Shown piece by piece: positions 6,399 through 58,130 of a stretch of DNA of 64,000 bases. A program made the position numbers and the translations under genes. Positions within the stretch are counted from its first letter, which is position 1; each line of letters starts with the position of its first letter. The notes under the pieces were generated by a model. It worked only from the letters and a program-made list of their open reading frames with translations, ran no database searches and had not been told where the DNA came from. This DNA is from a virus (Duplodnaviria; Caudoviricetes), in IMG/VR virus record IMGVR_UViG_2508501066_000002, positions 1-64,000 of that record. One strand, given 5' to 3'.

Positions 6399-6430
6399 TG
6401 CTGCCTCCGCTCTGTCAGACGTATACAAAA

Positions 6431-6491
6431 CCGCTCTCCCTGGTCAACTTGAGCTTTTACAAGCTCCGGCCTTCAGGCCGGGGTGGTTGAC
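6431..6491 (-). mobile_element. truncated IscB/HEARO-type IS200/IS605 end (5' part of omegaRNA)
   Basis: minus strand GTCAACCACCCCGGCCTGAAGGCCGGAGCTTGTAAAAGCTCAAGTTGACCAGGGAGAGCGG; no iscB ORF follows. Confidence 0.7.
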
Positions 6492-6585
6492 ACTATCGAC
6501 ACACCCGAACCGAAGCACGATGCCTTCGAAGTCCTTCTCGTCAACACCCTGAAGCGCTAACCGCGCTTGAGTTCTTAAAGCCGCA

Positions 6586-7902
6586 TCATTCCCTCCCCAA
6601 AACCTTCTTTACGAACTGCATACATTCCATGTCCTGAGTCACCTTCAGCGAGAACTTGCCGCTCTGATTCCGACTGGACGCGAAGAAAAGCCGGGCTTCG
6701 TTTTTGGCGCGCTCTTCCTCCGTCGCGTTGATCGAAATCGTCAGGTCCGCGATACGAATGATGTTGAAGTCTTCGGCGACATTGATGTCATCCGCGACCG
6801 TCGCTTTTGCGCCGTCGCGATTCGTCTGCGCCGCAGACAACACGGCAGCATCCTCCTCTTGCGCAATGGCGCGAAGACCCAAATGAATTTGTTTTGAGTT
6901 TTCGATCTTGTCGGTCGTGTAGACTTCGGGCGCCATGATGCCGCCGTAGTCGGGCACGATCAGATCGAACTTGATTCCCTTTGCCTTGTAGCGTTCCAGA
7001 ATGCGCCTGAGTCCCGAACACTTGAGCGTGCCGGATGGATATTCCTCGATGTAGAACTTGCCGGGTTTCTTGGCTTTTGCGACGTTTCTCACTCGAATAT
7101 CGGTGTCGACGATGCGAGTCGGAATTTCCATTATCGGCACTTCCGCGATCGAGGCGTCGACGCGCTCGGAGACGATTTCGGTCGAGACTTCGAGCGTCAG
7201 CAGCAGAACATTGTGCCCCGCAAAAGCCGCATTGCGCGCAAAGAAGGAAAGAGCGGCCGATTTGCCCTTCTTGGCCGCGCCCATGATCATCGACAATTCG
7301 CCCCGGCCCCAGCCCCTGTGTTTCAGGCAACGATCGAGCTCGGGGATGCCGGTCGTGATGCCGCGCGGGGCGATCTTGCCGGCTGCGACATCCTTTCGAT
7401 ACTGGGTACGATTCTCGATCTGTTCGAAGTATTCGTACTCCTGCAGTGCTTCGGCGGCGCCAACCATACTGGCATTTTGAATCAGTTTCTCGATCTTCTG
7501 AAAATCGCCCTTTTCGAGATACTTGACCGATTCGATGATCGCGTTTTCGTAGGCCCTATGTCTTGCGAACTCAGCGACGCAATCGACAACATAAGGGCCA
7601 TCCGCAATATTAACTTCCTGAAGCTCCTTGAGCTTGTCTTTAATCTCGGGCACTAAATCGCTTCGAATTAGTTTCTTGGCGATTTTCTCTTTCAGAATAT
7701 TGACGAGCGATACGACATCCGGCACACGGCCATAGCGCGAATAAAAATCGATGCCGATATCGACGAGCGTTGCTTCCGCCGCGTTTTCGAAATAGTCGGG
7801 ACGAATGAGTCCCGACGTCCTTCTGTTGAAATCGACGTCTCGAATGATCAGTGCCGCTATTTTGGTCTGAAACTCGGCATCGAAATCATATTTCTTGGTC
7901 AT
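6586..7902 (-). CDS. dnaB: replicative DnaB-like helicase
   Basis: GITTGIPELD, Walker A GAAKKGKS, TLEVS, IVPDYG, AAQTNR. Confidence 0.93.
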   Translation of the reverse strand: MTKKYDFDAEFQTKIAALIIRDVDFNRRTSGLIRPDYFENAAEATLVDIGIDFYSRYGRVPDVVSLVNILKEKIAKKLIRSDLVPEIKDKLKELQEVNIADGPYVVDCVAEFARHRAYENAIIESVKYLEKGDFQKIEKLIQNASMVGAAEALQEYEYFEQIENRTQYRKDVAAGKIAPRGITTGIPELDRCLKHRGWGRGELSMIMGAAKKGKSAALSFFARNAAFAGHNVLLLTLEVSTEIVSERVDASIAEVPIMEIPTRIVDTDIRVRNVAKAKKPGKFYIEEYPSGTLKCSGLRRILERYKAKGIKFDLIVPDYGGIMAPEVYTTDKIENSKQIHLGLRAIAQEEDAAVLSAAQTNRDGAKATVADDINVAEDFNIIRIADLTISINATEEERAKNEARLFFASSRNQSGKFSLKVTQDMECMQFVKKVLGRE

Positions 7903-7930
7903 ATGGCGCGACGATTAAATATCGATGTCG

Positions 7931-8311
7931 TTAAATACCAAAACTGACATTATCGAAGTTGACTGCACTCGAATTCATATTCCCGGATTTGAAAAAACCG
8001 ATATCGTGCTTAAAAATGCACACGATATCGCCCTTAAACGTTTGAATTGTTATCGAATATTTGTCGTAATCCACCAATTGCGCTCGAACAAATCCGGTCT
8101 CGCAAATATTCACCGCATAAAATTCAATGAGCTTATTTTCCGAATCCAAAATCTTTTGAAGCACGGCTTCGTGGCCGGTTTTGACGACTTTTTGGGGAGG
8201 GTACTTAAGCTTTAGCTTTCGGCCGCGCTGTTCCTGCCGTTTGGCGAAGGTCCGCTGCAGATTGCGCTCGGCCTCGTCTGTCGAAATTGAGAATTTGCGA
8301 ATCTCATTCAT
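7931..8311 (-). CDS. Hfq/Sm-like protein
   Basis: LVDYDKYSITI...VCIFKHDIGFF resembles Hfq Sm1/Sm2 (xFDxFxILL...VYKHAIST). Confidence 0.65.
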   Translation of the reverse strand: MNEIRKFSISTDEAERNLQRTFAKRQEQRGRKLKLKYPPQKVVKTGHEAVLQKILDSENKLIEFYAVNICETGFVRAQLVDYDKYSITIQTFKGDIVCIFKHDIGFFKSGNMNSSAVNFDNVSFGI

Positions 8312-8398
8312 GACGTTCTCCTTTGTTTCTAACTGTCGAGTGCGTCTAGTCTAAATAAATCAGTAATGACTGACAATGCTTAACAAAGCATTCCCGAT

Positions 8399-9160
8399 TC
8401 AAAGCAGCGTTTCCCGATAAGCTCGCCTTAAGATCGCTTCGTCAAAATACTTTGCTGCCTCGCTCTCGGCGATCAGAGGCTTTCGGCTGAAGCCATAGAC
8501 GTAGTCGGCGAGCGCGAAGTGTGGGTTGGCACGAGTCCTGATGCGCCGACACAGCCAGCCCTGAAACAGCCGATGCAGCGGGTCGTCGAGCGATTCCGGC
8601 TCGATAAAGAAGGGGTGTTCCGGCAGTACAATGCCGCCTTGAAGCTGATCTTTCCAGGCTTTGAGCGTCGCCAGCTTGAACTCTTCGGTTCGCAGGTGAT
8701 TGGGTCTTGGCAAATAATGCTTCCACTTCGACGCATCGGCGTATCTGAACGCTGCGCGAAAGAAGAAGGAATAGGGCAGACCGAGTTCGTCGATCGTCTG
8801 TCTAAGATGTATGAAGGACGCCGCCTCGCGATGTTTAGCGAACGCCGCGAGCGAGTCGCAGCGATTCCCGAAACCCCGACGATATTTCGCCTCTTCGACA
8901 TCGTGGCGGCGTTTTAGCATGTCCTGATACGCGGCCCCGTAAGCCCGCACGCATTGAAGAGTCGCTTCGCCGGGATGCAAGAGTCGATTGTCCCACCATT
9001 TCTTGTCGAACAGCCGCGCTTCCTTTTCCCAATCGATTGCACCGCGCACCCGCTGCAGTTCGAGATCGAGCGATCGAACCATGTCCGCCTGTATTTCCAC
9101 CTGTAATCTCTCGTCATCAGCTAAAAGTGAATCAAGAGTATCGATGATTTTCACAGGCAC
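8399..9160 (-). CDS. hypothetical protein (replication cluster)
   Basis: 253-aa ORF upstream of Hfq-like and DnaB genes; LPRPNHL motif. Confidence 0.6.
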   Translation of the reverse strand: MPVKIIDTLDSLLADDERLQVEIQADMVRSLDLELQRVRGAIDWEKEARLFDKKWWDNRLLHPGEATLQCVRAYGAAYQDMLKRRHDVEEAKYRRGFGNRCDSLAAFAKHREAASFIHLRQTIDELGLPYSFFFRAAFRYADASKWKHYLPRPNHLRTEEFKLATLKAWKDQLQGGIVLPEHPFFIEPESLDDPLHRLFQGWLCRRIRTRANPHFALADYVYGFSRKPLIAESEAAKYFDEAILRRAYRETLL

Positions 9161-9226
9161 AGTAAGAGACTCAAAACAACTCCCGCGTGTAGGCTGCCTC
9201 TTGAACGAAAGTTATTTATGACTTAT

Positions 9227-10525
9227 TTGACTACTCCCCTCCCTAAAGGAAGGGGATTCCTAATTCATAGACCGCAGGACGACAACACCGAAATGCTATC
9301 GCCGCTTACGCAGTCTCCAAAGGCTAACACCGCCAGCCCGGCGGCTTTTATATTACACGCCGCGTTAACGTCGCGGTCGTGCTCTGTCTCGCATTCTGGA
9401 CAGGTCCACGACCGCACATCGAGCGGCATCGATTCAGAAACAAACCCGCAGCAATGGCAGCGTTTTGACGAAGGGAAGAATCGGTCAATCTCGACATACA
9501 CTCTACCGGCCCAATTAGCCTTGTATTCGAGTTGCCGGGTGAATTCTCCCCAACTTGCATCAGCGATATGCTTTGCCAATTTCGGGTTTTTAATCATGTT
9601 CTTCACGGCAAGGCTTTCAACACAAATAACTTGGTTCTCGTTAACTAATTTGTGGGACAACTTGTGCAAGTTATCCAACCGGCAATCGGAGATTTTGGCG
9701 TGAATACGGGCCACCTTGAGCTTTGCCTTTTGCCGGTTCTTGCTGCCGAGTTTTTTCTTGGCAAGGCGGCGCTGGTATTTGGCAAGCTTGGCGGCGTATT
9801 TAGCCGTATAGCGGGGATTGCCGGACTTGAAGCCATCGCTGGTGACGAACAAATCCTTGATGCCCACATCGATGCCGACCTTTTTATCATTGACCGGCAG
9901 CAACGTAGGCTCAAATTCGCACAGGCAGGACACGAAGTAGCGCCCGGCCTTATCTTTGGAAACGGTAACGGTGGTCGGATCGCTTGGCAATGGCCGGCTC
10001 CACTTGATATTAAGCGGATTTTTGCACTTGGCAAGCGTCAGTTGTCCGTTTTTGTAATTGAACGCGGTTTGTACAAAAGTCGCGCTCTGTTTATGTTTTT
10101 TGGATTTAAACACCGGGTATTTCGCCCGGCCCTCAAAGAAGTTTTTGAACGCGGCTTGCTGATTTCTCAGGCATTGCTGCAAAGGAACGCTGGATACTTC
10201 ATTGAGAAAAGCAAACTCAGGCTTTTGTTTGATCTCGGTCAGCTTGGCATTGGCGCCAATGTAACTAACCTTCTCCTTGGCCTGATAGTACGCATCCGTT
10301 CGGTATCTCAGGATGTAATTGTAGACAAAGCGCACACAACCAAACGTCTTAGCAAGCAGTTCTGCCTGTTCTTCGTCTGGATAGAATCTGTATTTGTATG
10401 CGCGTTTAACTTTCATGGTTTACATTATATCGCAAAAAATGTAAGTAAATATCATTTAATAATCAGCTCACGCCGATGCGCCTTATATCTCCGGCCTGAA
10501 GGACGAAGTTTTACGACGAATTCTG
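9227..10525 (-). mobile_element. IS200/IS605-family tnpB-only element
   Basis: left end follows TTAT (10529-10526) with subterminal hairpin; right end GGAATCCCCTTCCTTTAGGGAGGGGAGTAGTCAA ending TCAA; no tnpA. Confidence 0.88.
9265..10416 (-). CDS. tnpB: RNA-guided endonuclease TnpB
   Basis: AYKYRFYP HTH, RuvC GIDVG / VESL / DRDVNAA, Zn ribbon CHCC...CPEC. Confidence 0.95.
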   Translation of the reverse strand: MKVKRAYKYRFYPDEEQAELLAKTFGCVRFVYNYILRYRTDAYYQAKEKVSYIGANAKLTEIKQKPEFAFLNEVSSVPLQQCLRNQQAAFKNFFEGRAKYPVFKSKKHKQSATFVQTAFNYKNGQLTLAKCKNPLNIKWSRPLPSDPTTVTVSKDKAGRYFVSCLCEFEPTLLPVNDKKVGIDVGIKDLFVTSDGFKSGNPRYTAKYAAKLAKYQRRLAKKKLGSKNRQKAKLKVARIHAKISDCRLDNLHKLSHKLVNENQVICVESLAVKNMIKNPKLAKHIADASWGEFTRQLEYKANWAGRVYVEIDRFFPSSKRCHCCGFVSESMPLDVRSWTCPECETEHDRDVNAACNIKAAGLAVLAFGDCVSGDSISVLSSCGL

Positions 10526-44690: not shown

Positions 44691-44776
44691 TAAAAGTTGT
44701 GTATTGTAAGACTTATAAATAAGTAATTGGTGACTGACAATAGCTATACCTGAATTTTGAGCATTTGGCAAGCCCT

Positions 44777-47389
44777 ATGTCGTCTATCGTTCAGATTTTA
44801 CACAACCCGGTCGTCGCGAAGCTGAAGCATGCCGACCGTGAAGCGCAACTTGCAGTATCTGAACTTCTAAGCTACGTCGTATCGGGGGCCGAGTTCACCA
44901 ATCGCTTTCGGGATCGCAATTGGGACGGACGGCAGACGCTGTTCGACTTCGCGACCGGCAAATTTCCCGCAGGCTTCGTGCCGCGCGTGATGCACCATCT
45001 GCAAAAGCTCGGCTACACGGTGCAGTCTCTGTGCGCACCTCTGCCGGCCCCTCTGGGGCTCGAAGGCGACGCGCTCGAAAATTTCGACGGACTGGGCGGC
45101 GATACACGCTACGAATATCAGAAAAGAACCGTCGATGAGTTGGAAAAACGCGGGCGGCTGATCGCGATGCTCGCCACCGGCTGTCACGCCAAAGGCACAA
45201 AGATTTTGATGTTTGACGGATCGTTAAAAAACGTCGAAGACATCAAAGTTGGCGATGTATTGATGGGTCCGGACAGCAAATCCAGAAACGTACTGCGTCT
45301 TTATCGCGGCAGGGAAGAAATGTTCAAAATTATTCCCACGAAGGGCGATTCGTATGTCGTCAATCGATCACACGTTTTATCGCTTCGTATGACGGGTCTT
45401 AGGGGGCGCAAAGTCGACGGATATGAAGATGGGGAAATCGTAAACATTTCAGTAAACGATTATTTGCAAAAGGGAAAAACATTCAAACATTGCGCAAAAG
45501 GATGGCGAACGGGTGTCGAATTCCCACACGTTGATCTTCCGAAAGCTCTTTCACCCTATCAGCTCGGTGTTTGGCTTGGAGACGAAAGTAAAGACGCTTC
45601 TGCCATTACGTCGATCGACAAAGGAAAGGTTCCAAATCATGTTCTTCGCGAATTAAAAAATCAAAATTTATTGTTCAACAAGCACATACCAAGCATCTAC
45701 AAGGTCAACTCCAGTCAGAATCGACTGGAACTCTTAGCGGGACTCATTGATACGGATGGCTATCTTCATCATGGGTTTGTTGAAATCGTTACCAAATACG
45801 AAGTATTAGCAAACGATATTGCGTTTTTAGCAAGATCGCTTGGCTTTGCCGCCTACATAAAGCAAACAAAGAAGAGCATCAAATCAACGGGCTTTTGCGG
45901 GAATTACTGGAGAATCAGCATTTTCGGCGATCTTGATCAAATCCCATGCCGAGTCAAACGTCATCAAGCTCAAGAAAGACGGCAAGTCAAAAATGTTCTA
46001 AACGTTGGAATTCGTGTTGAATCTGTAGGAGAGGGTGATTACTACGGATTTGAAGTTGATGGGGATCATTTGTACGTCATGGGTGATTTTACCGTCACGC
46101 ACAACTCCGGCAAATCGCGCGTAGCGTCAATGGCTTACGCACGCATCAAACGCCCGACGCTGTTTTTGACCACTCGGAGCGTTCTGATGTATCAGATCAA
46201 GAAACGTTTCGAAAAAGATCATAACATTCGCGTTGGCGTACTTGGCGACGGTGAATGGAGCCCAACAAATGAAATAAATGTCGGTATGGTTCAAACACTC
46301 GCGCCTTTGCTGACCCCGCTCGATGTCGAGGTCGAAATCGCGCGCTGGAATCGATCCTGGAAAGATGGCATTGTCAAAAAGCTCGCCGAGCGGCGCGACG
46401 CGCTCATCAAAGCCAAGATGATGCCGGCCGAGGTTGAGAAGATTCTGGCTAAAGAGCTAAAAGCCTATCGGGATCAAAAGCCCGATCCGGATCAAATTCG
46501 AAGGTCTGTCACGGCCCGCGTCGAGCAGCACAACAAGCGGCATCGGCAGACGCTCGACCTGCTTTCGAAATTTGAATTCGTGATCGGCGAAGAAGCGCAC
46601 GAAGCGGGCGGCGATGGCTATTACAACGTCATTCAGGCGTGCAAGAACGCTTATTATCGATTGGCACTGACCGCGACCCCCTTCATGCGGTCGGATGGCG
46701 AAGACAACATGCGGCTGATGGCGGCGTTCGGCGAGATCGGCATTCGGGTCACCGAAAAGCGGTTGATCGACGCCGGCATTCTGGCAAAGCCCTATTTCAA
46801 ATACGTCGACACCGAGCGCCCCAAGAATCTCTACAGAACCACCGGCTGGCAGCGAGCCTACAAATACGGCATCGTCGAAAATCCGCACCGCAACGGCGTC
46901 ATCATCAACGAAGCGCTACGGGCCAAGCAATACGGTCTTCCGACTTTAATTCTGGTTCAGCACACGCGGCATGGCGAGCTCTTGAAGAAAGCTTTGAAAC
47001 AAGCCGGGGCGACGGTGGAGTTCATTCACGGCGCACACGAGCAGAGGGAACGCGAGCATTGTCTGAATGCACTCGCCTGCCGCAAGCTCGACATTCTGAT
47101 CGGGTCCACCATACTTGACGTGGGTGTCGACGTACCGGCTGTCGGCGTCATCATTCTGGCCGGCGGCGGCAAGGCCGAAGTCGCCTTGAGACAGCGGATC
47201 GGGCGAGGTCTTCGTGCCAAGAAAAACGGCCCCAACGTTGCGTTCATCTTGGATTTCGTCGATTCCGAAAACGAACATCTCCGGAATCACGGCAAGCAAC
47301 GTCGCGCCATCGTTCAGCAAACGCCCGGGTTCGCCGAGGGCATCCTGGCGCCGGGTCAGGATTTCGATTATTCCATTTTTGGGAAATAG
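44777..47389 (+). CDS. SF2 (DEAH-like) helicase with intein
   Basis: YEYQ, ATG|SGKS, EEAHE, LTATP, GVDVP, QRIGRGLR. Confidence 0.92.
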   Translation: MSSIVQILHNPVVAKLKHADREAQLAVSELLSYVVSGAEFTNRFRDRNWDGRQTLFDFATGKFPAGFVPRVMHHLQKLGYTVQSLCAPLPAPLGLEGDALENFDGLGGDTRYEYQKRTVDELEKRGRLIAMLATGCHAKGTKILMFDGSLKNVEDIKVGDVLMGPDSKSRNVLRLYRGREEMFKIIPTKGDSYVVNRSHVLSLRMTGLRGRKVDGYEDGEIVNISVNDYLQKGKTFKHCAKGWRTGVEFPHVDLPKALSPYQLGVWLGDESKDASAITSIDKGKVPNHVLRELKNQNLLFNKHIPSIYKVNSSQNRLELLAGLIDTDGYLHHGFVEIVTKYEVLANDIAFLARSLGFAAYIKQTKKSIKSTGFCGNYWRISIFGDLDQIPCRVKRHQAQERRQVKNVLNVGIRVESVGEGDYYGFEVDGDHLYVMGDFTVTHNSGKSRVASMAYARIKRPTLFLTTRSVLMYQIKKRFEKDHNIRVGVLGDGEWSPTNEINVGMVQTLAPLLTPLDVEVEIARWNRSWKDGIVKKLAERRDALIKAKMMPAEVEKILAKELKAYRDQKPDPDQIRRSVTARVEQHNKRHRQTLDLLSKFEFVIGEEAHEAGGDGYYNVIQACKNAYYRLALTATPFMRSDGEDNMRLMAAFGEIGIRVTEKRLIDAGILAKPYFKYVDTERPKNLYRTTGWQRAYKYGIVENPHRNGVIINEALRAKQYGLPTLILVQHTRHGELLKKALKQAGATVEFIHGAHEQREREHCLNALACRKLDILIGSTILDVGVDVPAVGVIILAGGGKAEVALRQRIGRGLRAKKNGPNVAFILDFVDSENEHLRNHGKQRRAIVQQTPGFAEGILAPGQDFDYSIFGK
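45182..46105 (+). mobile_element. intein (308 aa) in helicase Walker A
   Basis: G|CHAKGT...NRSH...LAGLIDTDG...YYGFEV...VTHN|S; lower GC than the host gene. Confidence 0.92.
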
Positions 47390-47391
47390 CC

Positions 47392-47631
47392 ATGCACGAT
47401 CTAAATATCACGACGCAAGACATTTTGATGGGACTGATGATTATCGGATTCATTGTCCACAGTATCTATACGACGTGCAGTCTCAAATCGTTGACCGTCG
47501 CGATTATCGACGTGCTCGCGGAACCGGTGAATGAATCGGGTCAGAATGAATCGGGTCAGTCCGAGCCGAGTTCGATCGGGAGTGAATACGGCGACACACA
47601 AGCGGGATTTGTTGTTGACGGCGATGTATAG
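47392..47631 (+). CDS. small membrane protein
   Basis: one TM segment, acidic tail. Confidence 0.45.
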   Translation: MHDLNITTQDILMGLMIIGFIVHSIYTTCSLKSLTVAIIDVLAEPVNESGQNESGQSEPSSIGSEYGDTQAGFVVDGDV

Positions 47632-47703
47632 TCACGAATGACTTGTTATTGTATACTATTGTATACTATATGCTGATATTCGATACAAGCGTAGGGGTGC
47701 AAT

Positions 47704-48042
47704 ATGAGTGAAAACAAAAGCAAAACGGTTGTCAAACCGGGCTATAAGCGGATGACTTACGAACTGTCTGAAAAGGCGCTTGCAAAAGTGCGTGCATTGG
47801 GCAGCAAAATCGATCTTGCCAATTCAGACGTTGTGGATGCGGCGATTCTGTCGCTGAATACTCAGGATCAAGGTTTCTTGGCAGAGGTCAGTCGCATCAA
47901 AAACGAACGAGAGGTAGCCCGGCGCAATGCCGGAAGACTTCGCGCGGATCTTCTGGAAATCTCGCCGCAGCTCGCAAAGCTTTCGGGCGACGAACTGTTG
48001 CGATTGATCGAAATGGTCAAGGGACAAAGCGTTTCGCCTTGA
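47704..48042 (+). CDS. putative ribbon-helix-helix-like protein
   Basis: KRMTYELSEKA strand-helix-helix pattern; TATACT boxes and operator upstream. Confidence 0.5.
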   Translation: MSENKSKTVVKPGYKRMTYELSEKALAKVRALGSKIDLANSDVVDAAILSLNTQDQGFLAEVSRIKNEREVARRNAGRLRADLLEISPQLAKLSGDELLRLIEMVKGQSVSP

Positions 48043-48112
48043 TCTCGGGGACGTCGATATCGCGCTTGATGCCCCGTGTGTCAAGCGCGATACTTAGTCA
48101 GAAATAAATTAA

Positions 48113-48517
48113 TTGAAAGGGGAAATCGTGGATTTAGACAATTCTCATGACGACGCTATGTTGCGAGGAAAGATTGAGAACAAACGCATTGAGCATTACA
48201 AGAAATATCTAACAGAGAAGTACCGTCCGCCAAGTAAAGGTGGAAACACAAGCGCGCGCCACGCGCACGTTCTGATCATTGACGGCGAGAAATACAGTTT
48301 CCTTGCACTTGGAGCCCAGCAATGGGCTTATAAATCGGACACGGTCTCGTTTGAATACGAGATCACAAAGGAAGGATACAGAAACATCATTAAGGAAACC
48401 TTTGTTGCTCGGACAAAGGACGGCGTCGAAGTCGTTCGTGGAAATCGCGGATTTAAGTCACGGCTACGAACAGCAAAAACGCGCATGCCCGCAAGTCGCC
48501 GTGAGTGGCGCGATTAA
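48113..48517 (+). CDS. hypothetical basic protein
   Basis: 134-aa ORF. Confidence 0.55.
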   Translation: MKGEIVDLDNSHDDAMLRGKIENKRIEHYKKYLTEKYRPPSKGGNTSARHAHVLIIDGEKYSFLALGAQQWAYKSDTVSFEYEITKEGYRNIIKETFVARTKDGVEVVRGNRGFKSRLRTAKTRMPASRREWRD

Positions 48518-48633
48518 CTGCCAATAGCCGCAGGACGCGCCATTGAGGGAAAGCCGCCGTTCAATGCTGTGGTGGTTGAGCAGGACTGGCCGGAATTTGA
48601 ACCGACGTGGGAAGCCATCGAGGCGCGGATGAC

Positions 48634-48693
48634 GGCTAACGTCTGAATTAAGCCGCGCCACGAAGTGGCGTCGGCTTGAATGAAATATTAGCG
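48634..48693 (-). other. integron attC site (R'' AAC mutated to AAT)
   Basis: minus: CGCTAATATTTCATTCAAGCCGACGCCACTTCGTGGCGCGGCTTAATTCAGACGTTAGCC, closely resembling the aadA/aadB-type attC as I recall it. Confidence 0.85.
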
Positions 48694-48891
48694 GGAAAGC
48701 CCGCCGAAGACGATGATGACATTTGACCAATGGTGGGACAAGGAAACAGAAGCGGTCGGGAGAAAAGGCATGGGACGAAATGGTGTGTTTATCAGCTTGC
48801 GAAACGCGCATGGGTAGCGGCAGAGATGAATGAACGGGAAGCGTGCGCGAAAGTCTGCGAATCTTTCGGTGGAAGACGAAGGAGACATGAC

Positions 48892-49134
48892 GTGACGAAC
48901 GAACAGAACCAAAACGAAGACGCAGAAGGCCGGTCGAACTCTAAGGCGTTGTTATGCGCGGATATCCCGAAAGGCTGGATTCCGCTGATTGAAGCGGTGG
49001 ATTTCGTGAACAAGAACATAATGTCGAAGAACCCGCGATTTGTGCTCGACAACTGGGACCACAAGTACACGCATATTCGCGTGGACATGCGTACCGGATT
49101 GGCAATCATCCTGCCTGGAAACAAGAGCGCCTAA
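48892..49134 (+). CDS. hypothetical cassette-like protein
   Basis: AGGAG RBS + GTG; contains GTTATGCGC and stops in GCGCCTAAC. Confidence 0.55.
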   Translation: MTNEQNQNEDAEGRSNSKALLCADIPKGWIPLIEAVDFVNKNIMSKNPRFVLDNWDHKYTHIRVDMRTGLAIILPGNKSA

Positions 49135-49228
49135 CTTAGATTTAGACACCACTTTAGGCGCCTAATCCTGTAACAGCCGACAAATACACCCGCCACGAAG
49201 TGGCGTCGGCTTGAATGAATTGTTAGTT
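49129..49228 (-). other. composite/degenerate attC site
   Basis: GCCTAAC at 49129; 49191-49218 repeats 48656-48683; ends GTTAGTT. Confidence 0.75.
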
Positions 49229-49248
49229 GGCATATTGGAGAACAAACA

Positions 49249-49653
49249 ATGAGAACGATAATTGCAGGAAGCCGAAGCTGCGTTGACATGCGACACCTTC
49301 TTGCGGCAATTGAAGCTTGTGGTTGGATTCCAACACAGGTTGTAAGCGGAACGGCTGCTGGGGCCGACAGACTTGGCGAGCAGTGGGCCGAAGTCGCTGG
49401 CGTGCCGTGTGTGAGGTTTCCCGCGGACTGGAATACGCACGGAAAGCGCGCCGGGTTTCTGCGAAACGAACAGATGGCGGATAACGCCGATGCTCTAATT
49501 GCCCTGTGGGACGGCGAAAGTCGCGGCACGAAACACATGATCGACATAGCAAAGCGAAAAGGACTCGTTGTGTATGTCCACATGATAGCTAACGCTTCGC
49601 CTGAGGGGCGCGGCACTGTGAAGTCTGAACAGGGAAAGAAGCTTCGATATTGA
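49249..49653 (+). CDS. YspA/SLOG-family (DUF2493-like) protein
   Basis: IIAGSR, VSGTAAGADRLG, FPADW, AGFLRN.QM, WDGESRGTKHMI. Confidence 0.85.
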   Translation: MRTIIAGSRSCVDMRHLLAAIEACGWIPTQVVSGTAAGADRLGEQWAEVAGVPCVRFPADWNTHGKRAGFLRNEQMADNADALIALWDGESRGTKHMIDIAKRKGLVVYVHMIANASPEGRGTVKSEQGKKLRY

Positions 49654-49657
49654 GAAG

Positions 49658-49984
49658 TTAATCCAGACACTTCACCTTCATGATCCAGGTGATGGCATCA
49701 TCCCCAAACATATACGTGCCGGTCTTGAAAGGCTTCTGATCGATCACTTCGAACGACCGGCACGCCCCATCCAATTTCGTTGCGATCATTTCTCGTCGAT
49801 CTTCCTCTTTGTTGCCGTCCCAGCCGATATCGTGGGCGTTCTTGATCAGGAATTTGTAGTCGTAGCTCGAATCGTCGGGTGGATCGACTCTTAAAATCCC
49901 GTGCGCCTCGGACGCGGCAACGTACATCTTCGTTCCGGCGCATCCCGTCAGGAGTAACAAAGTTAAGGACAAGATCAGTTTCAT
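49658..49984 (-). CDS. lipoprotein
   Basis: MKLILSLTLLLLTGC lipobox, AAGGAG RBS. Confidence 0.75.
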   Translation of the reverse strand: MKLILSLTLLLLTGCAGTKMYVAASEAHGILRVDPPDDSSYDYKFLIKNAHDIGWDGNKEEDRREMIATKLDGACRSFEVIDQKPFKTGTYMFGDDAITWIMKVKCLD

Positions 49985-50075
49985 CGAAATCTCCTTAAGT
50001 TCGTTCCGGATATTATTGGGCATGGAACAAGGCATGTTAGTGGGTTGAACAAGTTTAGTCTAGACGTGGTTTAAT

Positions 50076-50354
50076 GTGCGTTTTAAAGGAGGATGCGTGA
50101 GGCGTATCGACGACGAAATCGTGATCTGGGCGATCGAGGACGCAGCGAAGGCCGCAGTCGAACGACTCGATCAGACGTTTGAGCCGAAGCTGTCGGGAGA
50201 ATTTAGAGCGCATCTTGAGCGGGTATTGGGGGATATGCTTAAGGGGCGTGATCCCTATTTCGTCAAGCGAAAAGAGGCAGTCGGGCTAAGAGTGTATGTA
50301 TTGGGGAAAGAGCGGTTGGTTTTGAATAAGAACGATTTCGATGTTCGGGGGTAG
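50076..50354 (+). CDS. hypothetical protein
   Basis: ORF with AGGAGG before an internal GTG. Confidence 0.5.
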   Translation: MRFKGGCVRRIDDEIVIWAIEDAAKAAVERLDQTFEPKLSGEFRAHLERVLGDMLKGRDPYFVKRKEAVGLRVYVLGKERLVLNKNDFDVRG

Positions 50355-50481
50355 GGTTATGGAGTATAAGGATTGCGGAGGTTTGAGGGGCGGCTATGGG
50401 TGTAAGGGCTCGGAACCTGGAGAGGGGTGATTTTGGAGGGACCATCCTCAGCTCGACGCGCTCTGTTCTAAGACATTCGTT

Positions 50482-51242: not shown

Positions 51243-51492
51243 TTTTCACCTCAGCTTGTACATTTTGTTGAATCCTAAACCCTAGCAAGCTTAACGCTTG
51301 CCGTTGCGATCCTTGCAACTTGCAAACAAGTTTACTCACTTGTGACTTACTTTGCAAGCATAAAAAACTAAGCAATGCGTATATTTTTTGTGAAAGAAAT
51401 TGTTTCTGAAAAGCAAACAATCATGGCACAATTATTATCGATACAAGAATCATTCCATAAACATACACTAATGAATACCACAAGAAATTGTT

Positions 51493-51567
51493 TGGTATCA
51501 CTTGTGCATGTACAAAAATTATGCCAAGCAATATGGCACAAGTATTGCTAAAGCAAGCTTCATGCCA
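51493..51567. promoter_or_regulatory. second cluster of sigma54-like boxes
   Basis: TGGCACAAGTATTGCT 51534-49(+), TGGCATGAAGCTTGCT 51552-67(-), two weaker copies 51493-51526. Confidence 0.6.
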
Positions 51568-51569
51568 TT

Positions 51570-51615
51570 GATAATGATAATCATTCTCACTTGTAAATGA
51601 GAATCACTTGCATTT
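51570..51615. promoter_or_regulatory. tandem Fur-box-like sites
   Basis: GATAATGATAATCATTCTC (18/19 to the E. coli consensus) then AAATGAGAATCACTTGCATTT. Confidence 0.7.
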
Positions 51616-51881
51616 GTAAATACTTGTCATTCTCACTCCCGCGCCCGCGTCCATGCCGAATCCACGCCGTTCGCCCGCCGTTCGCCCGCCCAAGGGCGCC
51701 CTTGGCTGTGGTCAGACCCAGCCGTTCGGTTATGGTTACCGAGGGCCGTTCGGTGGGTCCGAGCCGCGGGATTGGTCAAGTCCAGCCGTTCGGTTACGGT
51801 AAACTCAAGCCGTTTGGCTGCCCATGGGTGAACCTTGGGCCTGGTAGAGTGAGGAAAAAGGCGCATCCTTGCGCCGCTATC

Positions 51882-52187
51882 TCAGTACAGAATAACTCGG
51901 TGACTCTCGCAACAGCATTCGCAGCGTATCTCGACCCGACCCGACTCAGGGCCACCATAGCTCTCGTCGACCCACTGATGTCCTTTCCATGCGCACACGA
52001 GCATGGCGAATGACATCTGAATGAGATAGATCGCGATAAAACAGGCGTATTCGAGATCCGTCTGCTGCTTCTTCCCATCTTCCGGCGCAAAGGCGCTGTG
52101 ATTGTGATTGAAATCCTGGATCTCCGACCGGGTCATCATCGCAACGTCTCGAGCCCATTTCTTAAGTCTTTGTGCCCTGGTTTTCAT
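51882..52187 (-). CDS. hypothetical protein with C-terminal Zn-ribbon-like motif
   Basis: GAGGA RBS, upstream phage promoter; CAWKGH...CECC. Confidence 0.6.
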   Translation of the reverse strand: MKTRAQRLKKWARDVAMMTRSEIQDFNHNHSAFAPEDGKKQQTDLEYACFIAIYLIQMSFAMLVCAWKGHQWVDESYGGPESGRVEIRCECCCESHRVILY

Positions 52188-52548
52188 GTTTTATCCTCGT
52201 TGTGTTGTGCGTTCTTGTTTAGGGCGCATACAGTCTGACGAGGCATATCAGGGATGTGTCTGGAAATATTTCTGGCACCGAGCCGCCAAACCCTTGGCAC
52301 AGGAAGGCCCTTGGGAGCCTCATGGCGGCACGAAATCGGTAAACGGATGTCTATCTAGCCCCAAGGGCAAAAACGGCTCTCCTTGGGCCGGAGAATGGCT
52401 CGGTAAACCCATGGCTGTGGCTGGCTGTGGATTTACCGAGGGCCGTTCGGTCGGTCCAAGCCGTGGGTGTGGGAACCTTGGGCCGTTCGGTTCCCATGAT
52501 TGATTCTTGAGCATTTTTGAAGGGCGCATCCGTGCGCCCTTGATCGTC

Positions 52549-52878
52549 TTATGCCGCCACAAGACGGGTGACGGCAACGATCTGCCCGGACTCGTTGCGC
52601 ACCGCCGTCGGTCCGGTGTCCGGAGCATAGACACCGGCTCGGCCTGGCACTGCACTCAGTACCAATGACGATACAAGACAAGGTACGCCCTCCTCCGGTA
52701 GGCCGGTTACCTCGCCGAACCGGCGTCGAACGATCGGTGCCCCGGTGATGGGGCACGTGCCGACCACCTCATCGGTGGTCGATACCCGAGCCACCGTCCC
52801 GCTAGGCGGGATAGTGGTCTCGGTGCCATCCTGGCACCGAATAACAATTGGGTGGGGAGTCAGGTTGATAATCTTCAT
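52549..52878 (-). CDS. hypothetical phage protein
   Basis: MKIINLTPH...PSG.VARV...IVRR.FG...LP...VSSLV...APDTG..VRN..GQI. Confidence 0.7.
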   Translation of the reverse strand: MKIINLTPHPIVIRCQDGTETTIPPSGTVARVSTTDEVVGTCPITGAPIVRRRFGEVTGLPEEGVPCLVSSLVLSAVPGRAGVYAPDTGPTAVRNESGQIVAVTRLVAA

Positions 52879-53147
52879 TGTTTTTCTCCTTTCAGAAAAA
52901 ACCGCCCGGGAGTGCCGGGATTCCCCGGGATGTGGACGAATTCATTTGCGAACTCGTCCGGTAAGTAGAAGCTTTCATAGCCTGGTTTGTCCCGGCCCAG
53001 GCGCAACGACACGCCAAGCTCGGCGAGGCGGGTCTTAGCGGCGGGAGATACGCGGACGTATCCCCCTACCAAAGTGCGGCCGTCGCCGCGAAAATTCGTG
53101 ATCATAAAATACTCCAATTTAGAATGATAAAAGTCTAAATAAGGCAC
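52875..53147 (-). CDS. hypothetical protein
   Basis: coupled to the downstream gene; start uncertain. Confidence 0.45.
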   Translation of the reverse strand: MPYLDFYHSKLEYFMITNFRGDGRTLVGGYVRVSPAAKTRLAELGVSLRLGRDKPGYESFYLPDEFANEFVHIPGNPGTPGRFFLKGEKQ

Positions 53148-53177
53148 ATCCTTGTGCCGTGTTCCGTCAGCCGCTTT

Positions 53178-53468
53178 TTACACGCGGCGGTCAGCATGCC
53201 GGACCCAATCCGGTATGAGTTGGGGCAGACCCGTCCTTGCGGCGGCAAGCAGGCTCGCCCGGGCGTACATAGCTCCGTTCGAGCTCTTTCCGCGCAGATG
53301 CGGCAGCGTCGCTTTCACGGCGCGAAGGACCGCTTTCTTGCGGCCCTCTTCCAAGATGGCAAGAGCTTCAAAGATATCGTCCTTGATATCGCACGCCCGA
53401 GCATACGCTCGGCGCGCGCTGTACAGGTCGTCACGAAGTTGACGGGCTATCAAAATAAGGTCTTTCAT
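53178..53468 (-). CDS. hypothetical protein
   Basis: GAGGA RBS, upstream phage promoter. Confidence 0.55.
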   Translation of the reverse strand: MKDLILIARQLRDDLYSARRAYARACDIKDDIFEALAILEEGRKKAVLRAVKATLPHLRGKSSNGAMYARASLLAAARTGLPQLIPDWVRHADRRV

Positions 53469-53590
53469 TTTTCTTCCTCTCTTGTTGTGCGTTGCGAGTA
53501 TATTGTCGTTTGTAGAATGTGGAAGAACATCGGGAATCTGTCAAAACCCGCAAGCTTGCCGTGGTCGGCGGGAATAAAGAAAAGGGCGCT

Positions 53591-53800
53591 TCATGCGCCC
53601 TTAAGATGAACCTCCTTGTAGATATATTTTCCCTCGTTAGCCAATTTCAGGCTCTCGGCCCACTCGATGCCATCTGGCTTTTGGAGTCGCCGATCGCTCC
53701 AAATCCAGATTTCTTCAACCATGTTCGCCCGAACACGGATGTCGGCATTCGGGTTTAAAGATATAATGGTGAAGAGGGCCTTTCCGTCAATTTCGAACAT
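53591..53800 (-). CDS. hypothetical protein
   Basis: AGGAG RBS before ATG at 53800. Confidence 0.5.
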   Translation of the reverse strand: MFEIDGKALFTIISLNPNADIRVRANMVEEIWIWSDRRLQKPDGIEWAESLKLANEGKYIYKEVHLKGA

Positions 53801-53819
53801 TTTTTCTCCTGTGTTGAAA

Positions 53820-54011
53820 TTAGTGTTCGGGTACGTAGTCGTCCGGAACGATCCGAACGCCCACCGGTGCGCAGCAAGCACCGCCCCCATATAACCCATA
53901 CCCGGACGTACATTCAATCCAGGCCGGGAACTTATCCGCTTCCTGCGGAGAGATGGGAACGACATAAGCGGGCGTGTCGCAGTAGGGACACGCGTCGATT
54001 AGAGCCTTCAT
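53820..54011 (-). CDS. Lar-like (restriction alleviation) Zn-finger protein
   Basis: CPYC...AWIEC...CC pattern. Confidence 0.5.
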   Translation of the reverse strand: MKALIDACPYCDTPAYVVPISPQEADKFPAWIECTSGYGLYGGGACCAPVGVRIVPDDYVPEH

Positions 54012-54621
54012 TTCTTTATCTCGCTTCGTTTTGTTCTCAATCAGAACGATGAAAAGTCTAATGAAATGTTTCAGGAGAATATGCGGGAATTTTGAAAACC
54101 CGTGGGCCGCCCATGGTTTCTCTTCTTTGGCTCTTTAACTCACGACTTATTGACTTTTCCGAGGATTTCTGATAAGCTTCGCCTGCCTCGCACGCAATGC
54201 GCGAGACGAGGCAGGCGAAACCCCCTCGGGACGCAAAAATCTCGTCTCTGTATCTCTCCATCTCTTCACCTCTCCGTCGACCCTTGGCTGTGGTCAAACC
54301 CAGCCGCTTGGTGATCTACCTCCAACCATTCGCCACTGTGTTAACCCATGGTCAAACCCAGCCGCTCGGGTCTATTTGCCCGAGCAAAACGCAAAATCGT
54401 CGAAATAGCACTTTGGGAATGCGTCTAGAAGCGATTCTAAGGCTCGTAGACGCGCGTTTTTAATCGAAGCTATGTTAGGGTAGCGGGGTCTTTAAAAACG
54501 TGTCGTTTTGAGGCTCTGAGACGCATTGGAAAGCATGTTTTCAAAACGGGCCGCCCGTGGACTTCAAGTTTCCAAAAAATGGGCATCAAAGATGCCCAAA
54601 GTTGGAGGTAACAACAAGGTT

Positions 54622-54861
54622 TTAAATCGCTCTCACTTCCGCGAGAGCGTTTCGATACATTCTTGGAGACAAAGAAATCCAGTTTTCAGAAGTGTTGATC
54701 AATCTTGGTAACCGATCCGCGAGTTCTTGAGCCTCTTCTTTCGAGACTCCGAAGAACTCTTTCACTCTTCCGGTCTGTGGATTGAAAAGAATTTCGACGT
54801 AGATGTTCCGAACGTCGGAAGAAACTTCTCTGTAACGATGGGTTGCTAAAACCTGCATCAT
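54622..54861 (-). CDS. hypothetical protein
   Basis: GAGGTG RBS, upstream phage promoter. Confidence 0.55.
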   Translation of the reverse strand: MMQVLATHRYREVSSDVRNIYVEILFNPQTGRVKEFFGVSKEEAQELADRLPRLINTSENWISLSPRMYRNALAEVRAI

Positions 54862-55429
54862 GTTTCACCTCTTGTTTCATGACTCATTCAAGATGAGTAC
54901 AGTCTGACGAGGCAAAGAAGGGATGTGTTAGGGAATTCAGCGGTGACTTGATTTAAGACGATTTAAGACGGGTTTTGAGCTGACCCGCTACCCTTGGGTC
55001 AGTTTGCTACAAACATGGCTTAAAATCGATTCTAGACGGCTTCCTGACGCTTTTTCTCGGGCTGTTTGACACGGTTTCGAACAAATTAACTTAAAACTCA
55101 CCGGAAGCTTCAAAAACACCCGGAACGCGAAGTGCCGCCCGGCGAGCGAAGCGAGCGTTGGGAGGCACGCAGCGTTCCGGCCGCGCCGAAGGCGCGCTTG
55201 TTCTCTTGATTCCGAGGTTCGGATTGTTTACTGTCGGGAAGATTGAGTTGCCTGTCTGGCGGTAGGCTTAATTGTATTACTACGTAATACAATTAAACCG
55301 AACATCAAAGATTTAAGTCAGTGGCGATTTTACTCTGAACTCGCGGAAGTTTTAAACCTTCCGGCGCGCGCGGAGGCCAAGCCTTGAAGGCGAGCGAAGC
55401 GAGCTCAAGGCTTGGCCGTAGCGTCGCGC

Positions 55430-55467
55430 GTGGTTTCCCCTAGGTATATATACCTAGGGGAAACCAC
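55430..55467. repeat. perfect 38-bp palindrome
   Basis: GTGGTTTCCCCTAGGTATA|TATACCTAGGGGAAACCAC. Confidence 0.95.
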
Positions 55468-55810
55468 TTGCTAATTTCATAACTATAAGTATAAGTATAA
55501 GTATAAATATAAATATATAAATATAAATAAATATATATCGCGTGCGCGCGCGCGCGCGTGCCAGAAATTTCAAGGTTTGTCAAGTCATCCGTGACTGATT
55601 ACCAGCTCGGCCCTTGGTTGCCTTACCATGGATGTTAACCATGGATGTTTTTGGTAAACCTCACCATGGACCCGGCTATGGCAACCTTTAATCGTTCTGG
55701 TGGACATTTCCATGGACCCAGCCATGGCAACCTCTAGCCGTTCGCCCGAACACACCCCACGGATCGGTTCATGGATGACCCCAGCCGTTCGGTTCCCGCC
55801 CCAAGGCTTA

Positions 55811-55884
55811 GCCCGTGGAAATCTCTATAGCCGAACCCAGCCGTTCGCCCATGGAAATCTCTATAGCCGAACCCAGCCGTTCGC
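55811..55884 (+). repeat. 36-bp tandem duplication
   Basis: TGGAAATCTCTATAGCCGAACCCAGCCGTTCGC at 55816 and 55852. Confidence 0.9.
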
Positions 55885-56122
55885 AGCCCGGCCCGATCAG
55901 TCATCAAAAACTGACTCAAAAACATCGTCGGTAATCGTTTTTTATCAAGCTTTAAGACGAGTAGCGCGCACAAACTGATCGAAGTAGTATGTGAGTAGCG
56001 CTTTGATAGAAACGTGTCTCAAATCAAGCGAGAATGCGATTCAGAAACGCAAAGCATTCCCAAACACATTCCGTCATCGATGACTTATACTTGACCCATC
56101 TTTAACGCTGAAGGAGAACATC

Positions 56123-56425: not shown

Positions 56426-56899
56426 ACATCGTCGGTAATCTTTTCTACACGGACTTCCCGCTTAGTACGAGAACAAAACTGAGCGGGAATATGCCGGACT
56501 AGCGGGCAGAATAAAAACGTGCGGATTTTAGCTAAAAATCATTGATGTCGAGGTCGTAGTCCTTCTCGGCGGCGGGAAGTTCGTAAACGGGATTTTGGGC
56601 AGGTTCGAAGAGTCTCGGGTTCTTGGTCTTCATTCGACGAAGAACGTGTTCTAGGCGTTTTTCCTCATGGTAGTCGCAAATCGACCAGGAATGAGGTTTG
56701 GAGAGAATGCGGTTGCATTTCGTTCTGGAGTAGGTGTCGGGAGGGACCGGGTAGTCTTGGGCGTGGGAGAGAGCAGGGAGGAGAAAGAAGGGAAGTAGGA
56801 GAAGGGGTTTGTGAAGTTGGGACTTGGTTCGTGGAACCTGGCGAGGAGGGGTGTTGGCGGGTGCCCGGCCAACCCTTACATTTTCAAAATCTTTAAATT

Positions 56900-57052
56900 C
56901 AAAACCTTCAAACACATCCTCAAAACTTCCACACTCATCATCTACGTCCTCAAAACCTTCACACTCATCATCTACGCCTTCAAAACTTCCACACCCACAC
57001 TCACACTCATCATCTACGCCTTCAAAACCTTCAAACACATCTTCAAAATTCC
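56900..57052 (+). repeat. degenerate C/A-rich tandem repeats
   Basis: recurring CAAAACCTTC/CAAAACTTCC and CACACTCATCATCTACG x3; almost no G on the + strand. Confidence 0.8.
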
Positions 57053-57209
57053 CACGCCTATCACCTATATCTCTACCATTAACATTCAAGTTCTTACCCA
57101 TGTCGATTCTTGCCTCTCTCAACTTTTCATCAATCCATCGGCCGGAAAATAGAGTTTGATTTTCATGCTGGGCTCTCTCAAAGGTCGCCCTACTGAGCGG
57201 CATATAGAT

Positions 57210-57802: not shown

Positions 57803-58130
57803 GTTTGTTACCTCGTCGCATAACTGTGCCTTCAACTCGGACGCCTTCGGCGCCGGTTAAGGCGTCGTTATGCCTCAGTCGCCTTCCAGTAATCCGGGTC
57901 AACGTCATCGCCCCGGCCTCCTTGCGCACGGCGATGTCATCCACCGGAGTAAATCTGCGATAGAACTCGTACAGCGGTAATGCCCACACGCGCCCTAGAT
58001 CGTCTTGAAACACGGCAGTCATAGGACACTTATCCCTGTCAACCGCGCCCTCGTTGGCGATTAGTACCACCGTAAAGCGGTTACCGCTGTAGTGCTCCCA
58101 TACCTGTCCAGGCTGAGGGATCGTATTCAT
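57795..58130 (-). CDS. DUF1653-like protein reading through attC
   Basis: PGQVWEHYSGNRFTV...VWALPL.EF..RF. Confidence 0.6.
   Translation of the reverse strand: MNTIPQPGQVWEHYSGNRFTVVLIANEGAVDRDKCPMTAVFQDDLGRVWALPLYEFYRRFTPVDDIAVRKEAGAMTLTRITGRRLRHNDALTGAEGVRVEGTVMRRGNKHG
57818..57873 (+). other. integron attC site (complete)
   Basis: GCATAAC-TGTGC-CTT(C)AAC-TCGG(A)CGCC..GGCGCCG-GTTAAG-GCGTC-GTTATGC with both extrahelical bases. Confidence 0.88.

Follow-up and report, generated by a model that had tools for sequence, protein, structure and literature searches.

Integrons are bacterial gene-capture devices and drivers of antibiotic resistance. Here we describe integron-type attC sites and small genes in a virus of the Caudoviricetes (IMG/VR record IMGVR_UViG_2508501066_000002). 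The record comprises 102,110 bp, is metagenome-derived, is classed as a provirus and has a completeness of 94%; its first 64 kb (64,000 nucleotides) were analyzed and are referred to as the window. Phage-sized proteins, including tail-sized ones, are encoded in the window, together with a ParB-like protein and a helicase of the UvsW type that contains an intein. The block of interest (48529-49648; 1.1 kb) lies 1.2 kb downstream of the helicase and is flanked by a conserved phage gene on either side. On the plus strand it holds the 3' remnant of an open reading frame (ORF), an attC (site 1), a broken small gene, a gene for an 80-aa protein, a composite site containing half an attC (site 2), and a SLOG/YspA-family gene, near whose end lies a lone R' core. 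We consider it likely that this block is a small, decaying cassette array in a prophage, belonging to the clusters of attC sites lacking an integron integrase (CALINs), and that its units have been exchanged by the integron integrase (IntI) of the host.

attC sites of the window

Sites were sought with R1, a covariance model of the textbook attC structure that was built from four attCs of the class 1 integron of a P1 record (see below) and from two other viral contigs, which contributed seven sites; the window was left out. Site 1 (48634..48693; 60 nt; bottom strand on the plus strand) scored 75.4 bits (E 2e-18), compared with 17.7 bits for its reverse strand. It consists of R' GGCTAAC (48634-40), L arms, a central stem and R'' ATTAGCG (48687-93), with a T and a G extrahelical. 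Extrahelical bases and an unpaired spacer mark the bottom strand as the one that recombines; the role of these bases in attC strand choice was reportedly treated by Nivina and colleagues in 2016. A BLAST search for distant similarity, in which 44.5-52 kb was compared with 50,697 phage records, returned 43 matches, and nearly all of the 30 listed fell on the helicase. One 65-nt match (84.6%, E 1e-9) was found in a P1 record, MH445380, between annotated cassettes of a class 1 integron (aadA/cmlA array). Local alignment of site 1 to three attCs of this array, which link it to known IntI substrates, gave identities of 40/42, 37/39 and 31/33, and the two differences form a compensatory pair in the central stem, where A:T replaces G:C. 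Judged by its sequence, 48634-48693 is a true attC of the Xanthomonadales-like (XL, aadA) type. The original prediction, made from the DNA alone, had placed a near-complete attC here and had proposed a covariance-model search as a check, and both held. The site has one flaw: its R'' reads ATT instead of GTT, the sole A at the first GTT position, where G is found in 140 of 141 aligned viral sites. Rfam families did not match the sites, either in the whole window (gathering scores) or in 48000-50200 (E<=10), which we took to mean that Rfam holds no attC model; weak matches to mir-122 and RNase P were judged to be due to chance.

A 29-nt GC-rich core (CGCCACGAAGTGGCGTCGGCTTGAATGAA) occurs at 48656 and again at 49191, with 0 repeats expected from 100 shuffles and no third copy in the entire record. 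The second copy belongs to a composite site (49129..49228; plus strand), in which an R' core, GCCTAAC (49129-35), lies in an 8-bp palindrome (49126-63), behind which the 3' half of an attC of the XL type remains (49175-49228; 30.8 bits, E 9e-6 in R1). The central stem, both extrahelical bases, the spacer and R'' GTTAGTT (49222-28) are intact, and the canonical 5' arm is gone; positions 49191-49226 of this 3' half are identical to three integron attCs at 33/36 positions. The composite site predicted at 49129-49228 was thus recovered as to its 3' half, whereas 49126-49163 is a separate palindrome and the site as a whole does not make up a complete attC.

Across the window, R1 produced 17 matches at E<=10, of which three fell on separate sites and the other 14 scored 17.7 bits or below; the rest of the 102-kb record had no match at E<=0.1. 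The third attC-like site (57818..57873; 34.8 bits, E 6e-7), whose bottom strand is the minus strand, had been missed by the original prediction. Its R' GCATAAC and R'' GTTATGC are fully complementary. The surrounding ORFs run on the minus strand, and this site, too, is on the coding strand; none of its six neighbors (0/6) had a Pfam match. The conserved AAC/GTT boxes are present in sites 1 and 3, with the flaw noted in site 1, and are incomplete in site 2 taken as a whole, while both site 1 and the remaining 3' half of site 2 show the strand-specific extrahelical T and G bulged on the plus strand. The R1 matches of sites 1 and 2 lie 482 nt apart and the second is a half site; the CALIN class is defined by IntegronFinder calls, and the calls used here are those of our own model.

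R1 found nothing at 48921-48957 (E<=10), at 49126-49166 or at 49587. A right half-site had been proposed at 48921-48957, and we rejected it. The stretch is coding sequence, covering codons 10-22 of the 80-aa gene, whose length is kept in an 86%-identical homologue, and none of the breakpoints seen fell in it; the 8/9 complementarity of the stretch to GCGCCTAAC has, by our own estimate, a chance of about 4% per such stretch and was judged insufficient. The core pair GTTATGCGC...GCGCCTAAC, which depends on that half-site, falls with it, and the first unit extends instead from 48640 to 49134. The other proposed pair, GTTAGTT...AGCTAAC around the SLOG gene, was correct, with the unit's own ends pairing at 6/7 positions compared with 5/7 for the pair in situ. 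AGCTAAC (49587..49593; plus strand) is a lone R' core, as no attC follows it in the window. It had been predicted as a left half-site; R1 does not find it, but it is a real boundary in relatives and forms the right end of the SLOG unit.

Genes of the block and their polarity

The left end of the variable block is the 3' remnant of an ORF on the attC bottom strand (48529..48633; plus strand; ...EARMTANV*), which is separate from the 134-aa gene upstream, reads through the R' box of site 1 and stops at a TGA in the attC spacer (48643-48645). Behind site 1 lies a broken small gene of a family beginning MTFDQWWDKE... (48713..48890; plus strand). It has a frameshift near 48787 and has lost its 3' end: the similarity to homologues of 74-78 aa (83-90% identity) is confined to this part, and the homologues continue with ...NGSGYIDDDWAAMC..., which is absent in the window. 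One low-depth contig of the public run X7 (see below) carries one extra letter behind 48787. The 80-aa gene (48892..49134; plus strand) has a ribosome-binding site, AGGAGA (48880-85), a GTG start and an 86%-identical 80-aa homologue, and it ends with a TAA stop (49132-34) that forms part of the following R' core, GCCTAAC. Its protein had no match in Pfam, PHROG or NCBIfam, nor were relatives found in viral contigs. The occurrence of this protein on a recorded contig of 2.65 Mb agrees with an integrated prophage.

The SLOG/YspA-family gene (49249..49653; plus strand; Pfam PF10686, E 2e-12; phrog_289, E 6e-30) follows site 2. Its conserved part ends at about 49587, close to AGCTAAC, and the last 21 codons are read from the flank. 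Consistent with this, 44 viral SLOG relatives match from residue 1 to about 99-123, in most cases to 106-113, and the last 11 residues lie outside all of these matches; the SLOG gene of a JGI contig, L181, is 96.4% identical over 391 nt and has a different tail. When 16 ORFs of the window were compared with the collected loci by tblastn, just one 15-residue match (L051) was obtained outside the SLOG relatives. The antisense ORFs of the block had no family matches.

The cassette genes of the P1 record lie opposite to the strand of the match, so the plus strand of the window is the attC bottom strand at 48.6-49.2 kb. The coding strand is therefore the attC bottom strand at both places, plus at 48.6-49.2 kb and minus at 57.8 kb, and the reversed polarity that had been predicted, with genes antisense to the attC top strand, is confirmed by the P1 comparison and by the SLOG gene on the plus strand. 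A canonical cassette carries its ORF on the top strand with its own attC behind it, an arrangement that is usual rather than strictly defining; here, the ORFs are on the bottom strand and the attC is upstream. The mobile unit is an attC followed by a gene, not a gene followed by an attC, which corrects the original prediction. On the coding strand the window sites gave no terminator-like call, and on the opposite strand they gave weak terminator-like calls. The array is decaying, with a mutated R'', a half site, a pseudogene and a lone last core.

Breakpoints among relatives

Parts of 47400-50400 are contained in 20 public runs from 10 studies, each holding at most 52% of the sampled words. 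Logan contigs of four runs from four studies (X1, X3, X7 and X11) were aligned to the stretch at 88% likeness. Positions 48915-49116 were covered in none of the four runs and 48713-48914 by just one 151-nt X7 contig, cover from which we draw no inference of absence. An X1 contig of 1149 nt (depth 33) matched 48499-48641 (1 difference), continued with 543 other letters and then matched 49131-49593 (3 differences); this contig retains the SLOG unit and has other sequence in place of the first one. Contigs of X7 (2130 nt) and X11 (354 nt) matched the left flank up to 48641 and were unlike the window from there on, while in contigs of X3 (745 nt), X7 (1101 nt) and X11 the match began at 49131 and was preceded by at least three different sequences. 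Behind 49593, one X1 contig continued with 255 unlike letters, the first 30 of which resemble, by eye, an attC spacer, a left arm and the start of a stem. L181 matched 49203-49593 at 96.4% and diverged exactly at 49593; a complete attC (42.7 bits, E 2e-10) lies ahead of its SLOG gene, and a truncated stretch resembling an attC lies behind it.

The breakpoints 48641, 49131 and 49593 are the R' cores GGCTAAC (48634-40), GCCTAAC (49129-35) and AGCTAAC (49587-93), and the few letters shared beyond the cut (CTAA, C and G) are consensus letters. The original prediction had made itself refutable by gene-content breakpoints unrelated to the cores; the changes observed fall on them. The SLOG gene and its upstream attC move as one unit, and the attC behind a core changes with the downstream gene. 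Integron integrases cut between AA and C of the R' core. An attC that stays with its downstream gene is predicted by a crossover at AA|C, not by a crossover anywhere inside the repeat. Sequencing of junctions has located the IntI cut between AA and C (PMC9892861, section 3.4), and from the positions of the breakpoints IntI is the most likely agent of the exchanges.

Two other interpretations of contig joints were not retained. The block might have been inserted at an AA|C secondary site in a small phage ORF, as GCTAAC is repeated (48635-40 and 49588-93) and the ORF pieces are in frame. However, the block-less X3 contig lacks both flank pieces, and the 134-aa gene is complete without the tail, so this idea was dropped. 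Joints 48659>49202 (X7) and 49226>48645 (X11), considered as circles or deletions, were attributed to generic attC copies that fit both sites.

L181 also carries a second family of small hairpins (1780-1815 and 2300-2340; minus strand), composed of a GC stem, AACCTA and a ribosome-binding site, which recurs before successive small genes. One copy lies directly behind the AGCTAAC core after the SLOG gene.

Integrase search

The IntI model TIGR02249 found nothing at E<=1 in the whole 102-kb record, and the one tyrosine recombinase of the record, located at 95.4 kb of the record and 46 kb from the block, is a phage integrase of the P4 type. The predicted lack of an integrase is therefore upheld. 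Likewise, no IntI was found in 4/4 other viral records with such arrays, two of which are 100% complete. As intI was not found in the record, the block is not a complete integron; attI and Pc were not sought.

Bacterial origin of the site type

The exact 24-nt core was found in 115 genome stretches, and most of those listed are from Lysobacterales/Xanthomonadales; the genera among the matches listed include Luteimonas, Thermomonas, Stenotrophomonas, Pseudoxanthomonas, Lysobacter and Xanthomonas and their kin. In these bacteria the copies form long arrays with a spacing of about 300-600 nt, and 2/3 such genomes tested encode an IntI above the curated cut-off. The XL clade of attCs includes those of aadA1a, aadA2 and aadA7, and 99.4% of XL sites are located in Xanthomonadales chromosomes (PMC8352920). 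The word 'phage' is absent from the main text of that paper. As judged from the alignments, the window sites belong to this Xanthomonadales-like type, which is also that of the clinical class 1 aadA sites.

Mirrored polarity in other viral contigs

The exact core retrieved two viral contigs, L006 and L005, and a degenerate two-arm pattern retrieved at least 120 more viral stretches, of which 118 were analyzed. L006 and L005 carry 10 and 4 sites, respectively, all on the coding strand, and PHROG matches in both are restricted to same-strand ORFs, including a Mom-like protein and phrog_322. L006 is a 59,189-bp IMG/VR contig with terminal repeats (100% complete), in which 10 XL-type attCs occupy 3.7 kb (6391-10049; minus strand) between small early-region genes beside the DNA polymerase; an integron integrase is absent, and it is a better specimen than the window.

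Strand assignment by codon-position GC gave 120 bottom-strand, 11 top-strand and 48 undecided calls for 179 viral sites, as against 62, 535 and 269 for 866 bacterial sites; the viral figures count sites, not independent events, on contigs that were not dereplicated and with heuristic gene calls. Counted by locus, bottom-strand and top-strand majorities were found in 63 and 10 of 88 viral loci (15 ties) and in 9 and 94 of 115 bacterial loci (12 ties). An ORF of at least 50 aa stops at R' on the bottom strand at 56/75 viral and 166/542 bacterial sites, and at R'' on the top strand at 28/75 viral and 405/542 bacterial sites. A longest-ORF test of 665 bacterial inter-site intervals assigned 439 to the top strand and 57 to the bottom strand, with 120 ambiguous and 49 without an ORF.

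PHROG matches (E<=1e-6) were obtained for 20/68 of the bottom-strand viral ORFs that end at a box. Eight of these are DNA methyltransferases; among the others are an RNA ligase, a DHH phosphoesterase and a portal protein. Of the box-ending viral ORFs on the top strand, 2/28 had a match; both are QacE and represent ordinary class 1 integrons. In six viral loci (L197, L219, L233, L267, L269 and L292), DNA methyltransferase genes end directly at a bottom-strand attC. The bottom-strand ORFs of bacterial arrays were considered as banked phage genes, an idea that was rejected, as 0/56 had a PHROG match at E<=1e-6.

Among 141 aligned viral sites, the three positions of AAC are kept in 140, 137 and 139 and those of GTT in 140, 139 and 138, the extrahelical T in 139 and the extrahelical G in 130. 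Paired cells amount to 90.5%, compared with 79.9% after shuffling (reached in 0/500 shuffles), in an alignment that was itself fitted to the model, and 17/22 pairs show changes on both sides. The mirrored polarity holds almost throughout the viral contigs and points to a rule rather than an accidental pick-up.

Interpretation and alternatives

In the block, the folding strand that IntI cuts, the bottom strand, is the coding strand. The mobile unit therefore comprises an attC, a ribosome-binding site, a gene and the first six bases of the next R' core, and the stop codons of the genes fall within this core or immediately after it. We propose, as the most likely mechanism, that an integron integrase supplied in trans by the host would exchange such units between phage genomes by cutting at AA|C of the R' cores. 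The shuffled inverted phage cassettes of the original prediction are thus supported by the sites, their polarity and the breakpoints at the cores, and the host IntI in trans is suggested by the breakpoint positions. The mirrored polarity may be under selection, and a conceivable reason is that the non-template strand would be free to fold during transcription.

Several observations weigh against this proposal. L181 and the window share the SLOG unit from 49203 on, a point inside the attC, and are unlike in the 5' two thirds of this site, a difference for which IntI alone would not account. An X3 contig joins 48528 to 49649 through 49 other letters, off the cores, although its right side comprises just 30 letters and is weak. 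The breakpoints were read from contigs, not from reads. Block genes were not found in the 115 bacterial array loci, and the 47 loci of the SLOG search (44 SLOG and 3 others) had no R1 match at E<=0.1 with default filters. Site 1 with its ATT and site 2 without a canonical 5' arm may be poor substrates now.

One alternative is a relic, in which the phage lineage acquired attC-bearing DNA in the past, the sites are now inert and relatives differ by ordinary phage mosaicism (homologous or illegitimate recombination) that uses the repeats of about 60 nt as short homology without an integrase. This we regard as unlikely. The decay of the window sites (ATT, found in 1/141 sites; the half site; the pseudogene), the lack of intI in the record, the start of L181 homology within the attC, the X3 joint off the cores and the loss of synteny right behind the helicase, as in any variable phage region, all speak for it. 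However, three breakpoints, seen in several studies, fall on the first bases of sites, with a different attC behind the same upstream flank, whereas recombination inside the repeat would put the switch inside or behind the site. Nor would inert relics be expected to keep AAC/GTT and the extrahelical bases nearly invariant in 141 viral sites. That the sites are phage regulatory hairpins, acting in RNA or DNA processing or in the control of translation or transcription, merely homologous to attC and biased in strand by that function, appears improbable. Such hairpins would agree with the coding-strand bias at gene ends in viral contigs (120 versus 11 calls), with the same-strand ORFs of at least 50 aa that stop at the R' box in 56/75 sites, and with the terminator-like calls, weak on the opposite strand and none on the coding strand, from which a polarity effect on transcripts is conceivable. 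They leave unexplained the AA|C-exact differences among relatives and the conserved unpaired spacers and extrahelical bases, as in proven IntI substrates, and the same exact core fills bacterial integron arrays. Chance palindromes, or a chimera of phage and integron produced by assembly, are hardly credible: the record is a metagenome-derived provirus, and attC copies are abundant in the same kinds of sample (depth spikes at attC bins), but no core repeat was expected by chance, the R1 E of site 1 is 2e-18, the same junctions of flank and site occur in independent contigs of four studies, and complete viral genomes, one with terminal repeats, bear 10 or more such sites.

Clusters of attC sites borne by phages were first reported in 2023, as rare finds (PMC9892861). 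CALINs without intI were described there in temperate and virulent phage genomes, the host IntI was proposed to act in trans, and IntI1 recombined 5/6 phage attCs tested (Qi et al. 2023; PMC9892861); the P1 record used here as a reference is described in the same paper. Those CALINs resemble the present array in combining attCs and cassettes in the absence of intI and in carrying methyltransferase cargo (here 8/20 PHROG-annotated ORFs). The present array is distinguished by bottom-strand genes, by sites of XL type and by close relatives that differ at the cores. In the literature, including PMC9892861, we found no description of mirrored polarity in phage arrays or of core-exact turnover, although the supplementary tables of that paper may hold orientation data. 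Compared with the published phage CALINs, the mirrored polarity and the core-exact turnover appear to be new, whereas phage CALINs and the XL type were already known. The XL attCs of sedentary chromosomal integrons and of class 1 aadA1/aadA2/aadA7 cassettes (PMC8352920) are of the same type as the window sites, with identical cores of 24 nt and longer, the same 60-nt architecture and the same extrahelical T and G. XL arrays of bacteria carry their genes on the top strand (535 versus 62 of 866 sites), and viral contigs reverse this.

Two further systems bear comparison. Integrase-mediated insertion of cassettes at secondary sites leaves a lone core, and AGCTAAC (49587-93), which ends the array and has no further parts of an attC, resembles such a core. 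The apparent 'empty' X3 variant lacks the flank pieces as well, and truncation of a longer array is at least as likely as an insertion of this kind. The promoter-stem-loop (PeSL) cassettes of T4-type phages carry promoters and are thought to use the phage's own recombination. With these modules the present units share small accessory phage genes that are bounded by a conserved stem-loop and shuffled between relatives; unlike them, the units have bona fide attCs with IntI recognition features and core-exact junctions.

The clinical aadA-type attC is common in viral contigs (at least 120 stretches). Whole units that differ at the integrase crossover point are the first kind of evidence wanted for ongoing integrase-driven shuffling of phage genes. 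If the exchanges are what we propose, host integron integrases would give rise to phage mosaicism, attC-bounded genes would be carried by phages, and the two polarities would provide a testable natural contrast for the origin of cassettes and the role of polarity. More tentatively, and with somewhat less than even confidence, we suggest that phages of XL-integron hosts keep a mirror-image cassette pool of their own, in which each gene lies behind an attC and is shuffled by the host integrase. In that case, mirrored polarity might spare phage transcripts from termination at hairpins or expose hairpins on the non-template strand. The phage and host pools would be mutually silent, as a phage unit captured at the host attI would lie antisense to Pc and host cassettes in phages would lie antisense to phage transcription, and integrons would offer a shared recombination service to two separate gene pools. 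The cargo of the phage pool would be DNA methyltransferases, SLOG proteins and many small early genes.

Flanking regions and other features

L052 is the nearest related phage that was fetched, with a helicase 52% identical to that of the window. Homologues of window genes were not found within 7 kb downstream of its helicase; synteny is lost behind the helicase, and the block region is therefore a variable accessory region. Comparison of the left flank DNA with 401 genomes (the order of a Luteimonas genome) gave one weak match (68% identity), eight ORFs at the end of the record (host flank) gave just one weak CobT-like match, and no tRNA was found in the record.

The 134-aa gene on the left flank (48113..48517; plus strand) is a conserved phage gene outside the array, with 304 homologues at E<=0.01. 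The contigs of relatives align to it at high identity. It is complete without the tail: the homologues listed span about two thirds of the read-through query, and 7/7 fetched homologues end in ...SRRExxD. At 48336, inside this gene, 13 letters are absent in X1 and X7 contigs; this would shift the frame and is either a real variant or a contig error. The right flank is formed by a convergent gene (49658..50035; minus strand) from the ORF list, which is covered by X1, X3, X7 and X11 contigs and whose N-terminus resembles, by eye, a lipoprotein signal.

In the UvsW/ResIII-type helicase (44765-47389; plus strand), the intein occupies about residues 140-440 and has Hint and LAGLIDADG homing-endonuclease domains; the L052 helicase, of 520 aa, has no intein. 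An exact 15-nt tandem duplication (GAATGAATCGGGTCA x2) at 47529-47558, in ORF 47392-47631, repeats NESGQ in the protein. Directly behind gene 47704-48042, a perfect 12-bp inverted repeat with an 11-nt loop (48058-48092) may be a terminator or an operator, and it is the source of the chance mir-122 match in Rfam. Few long ORFs occur in 51250-56100, where G+C falls to 0.42 at 51.0-51.5 kb and no tRNA or Rfam family was found. ORF 56532-57203 (minus strand), which has no Pfam match, encodes a highly acidic, Cys-containing repeat of FEGVDDECE-like units.

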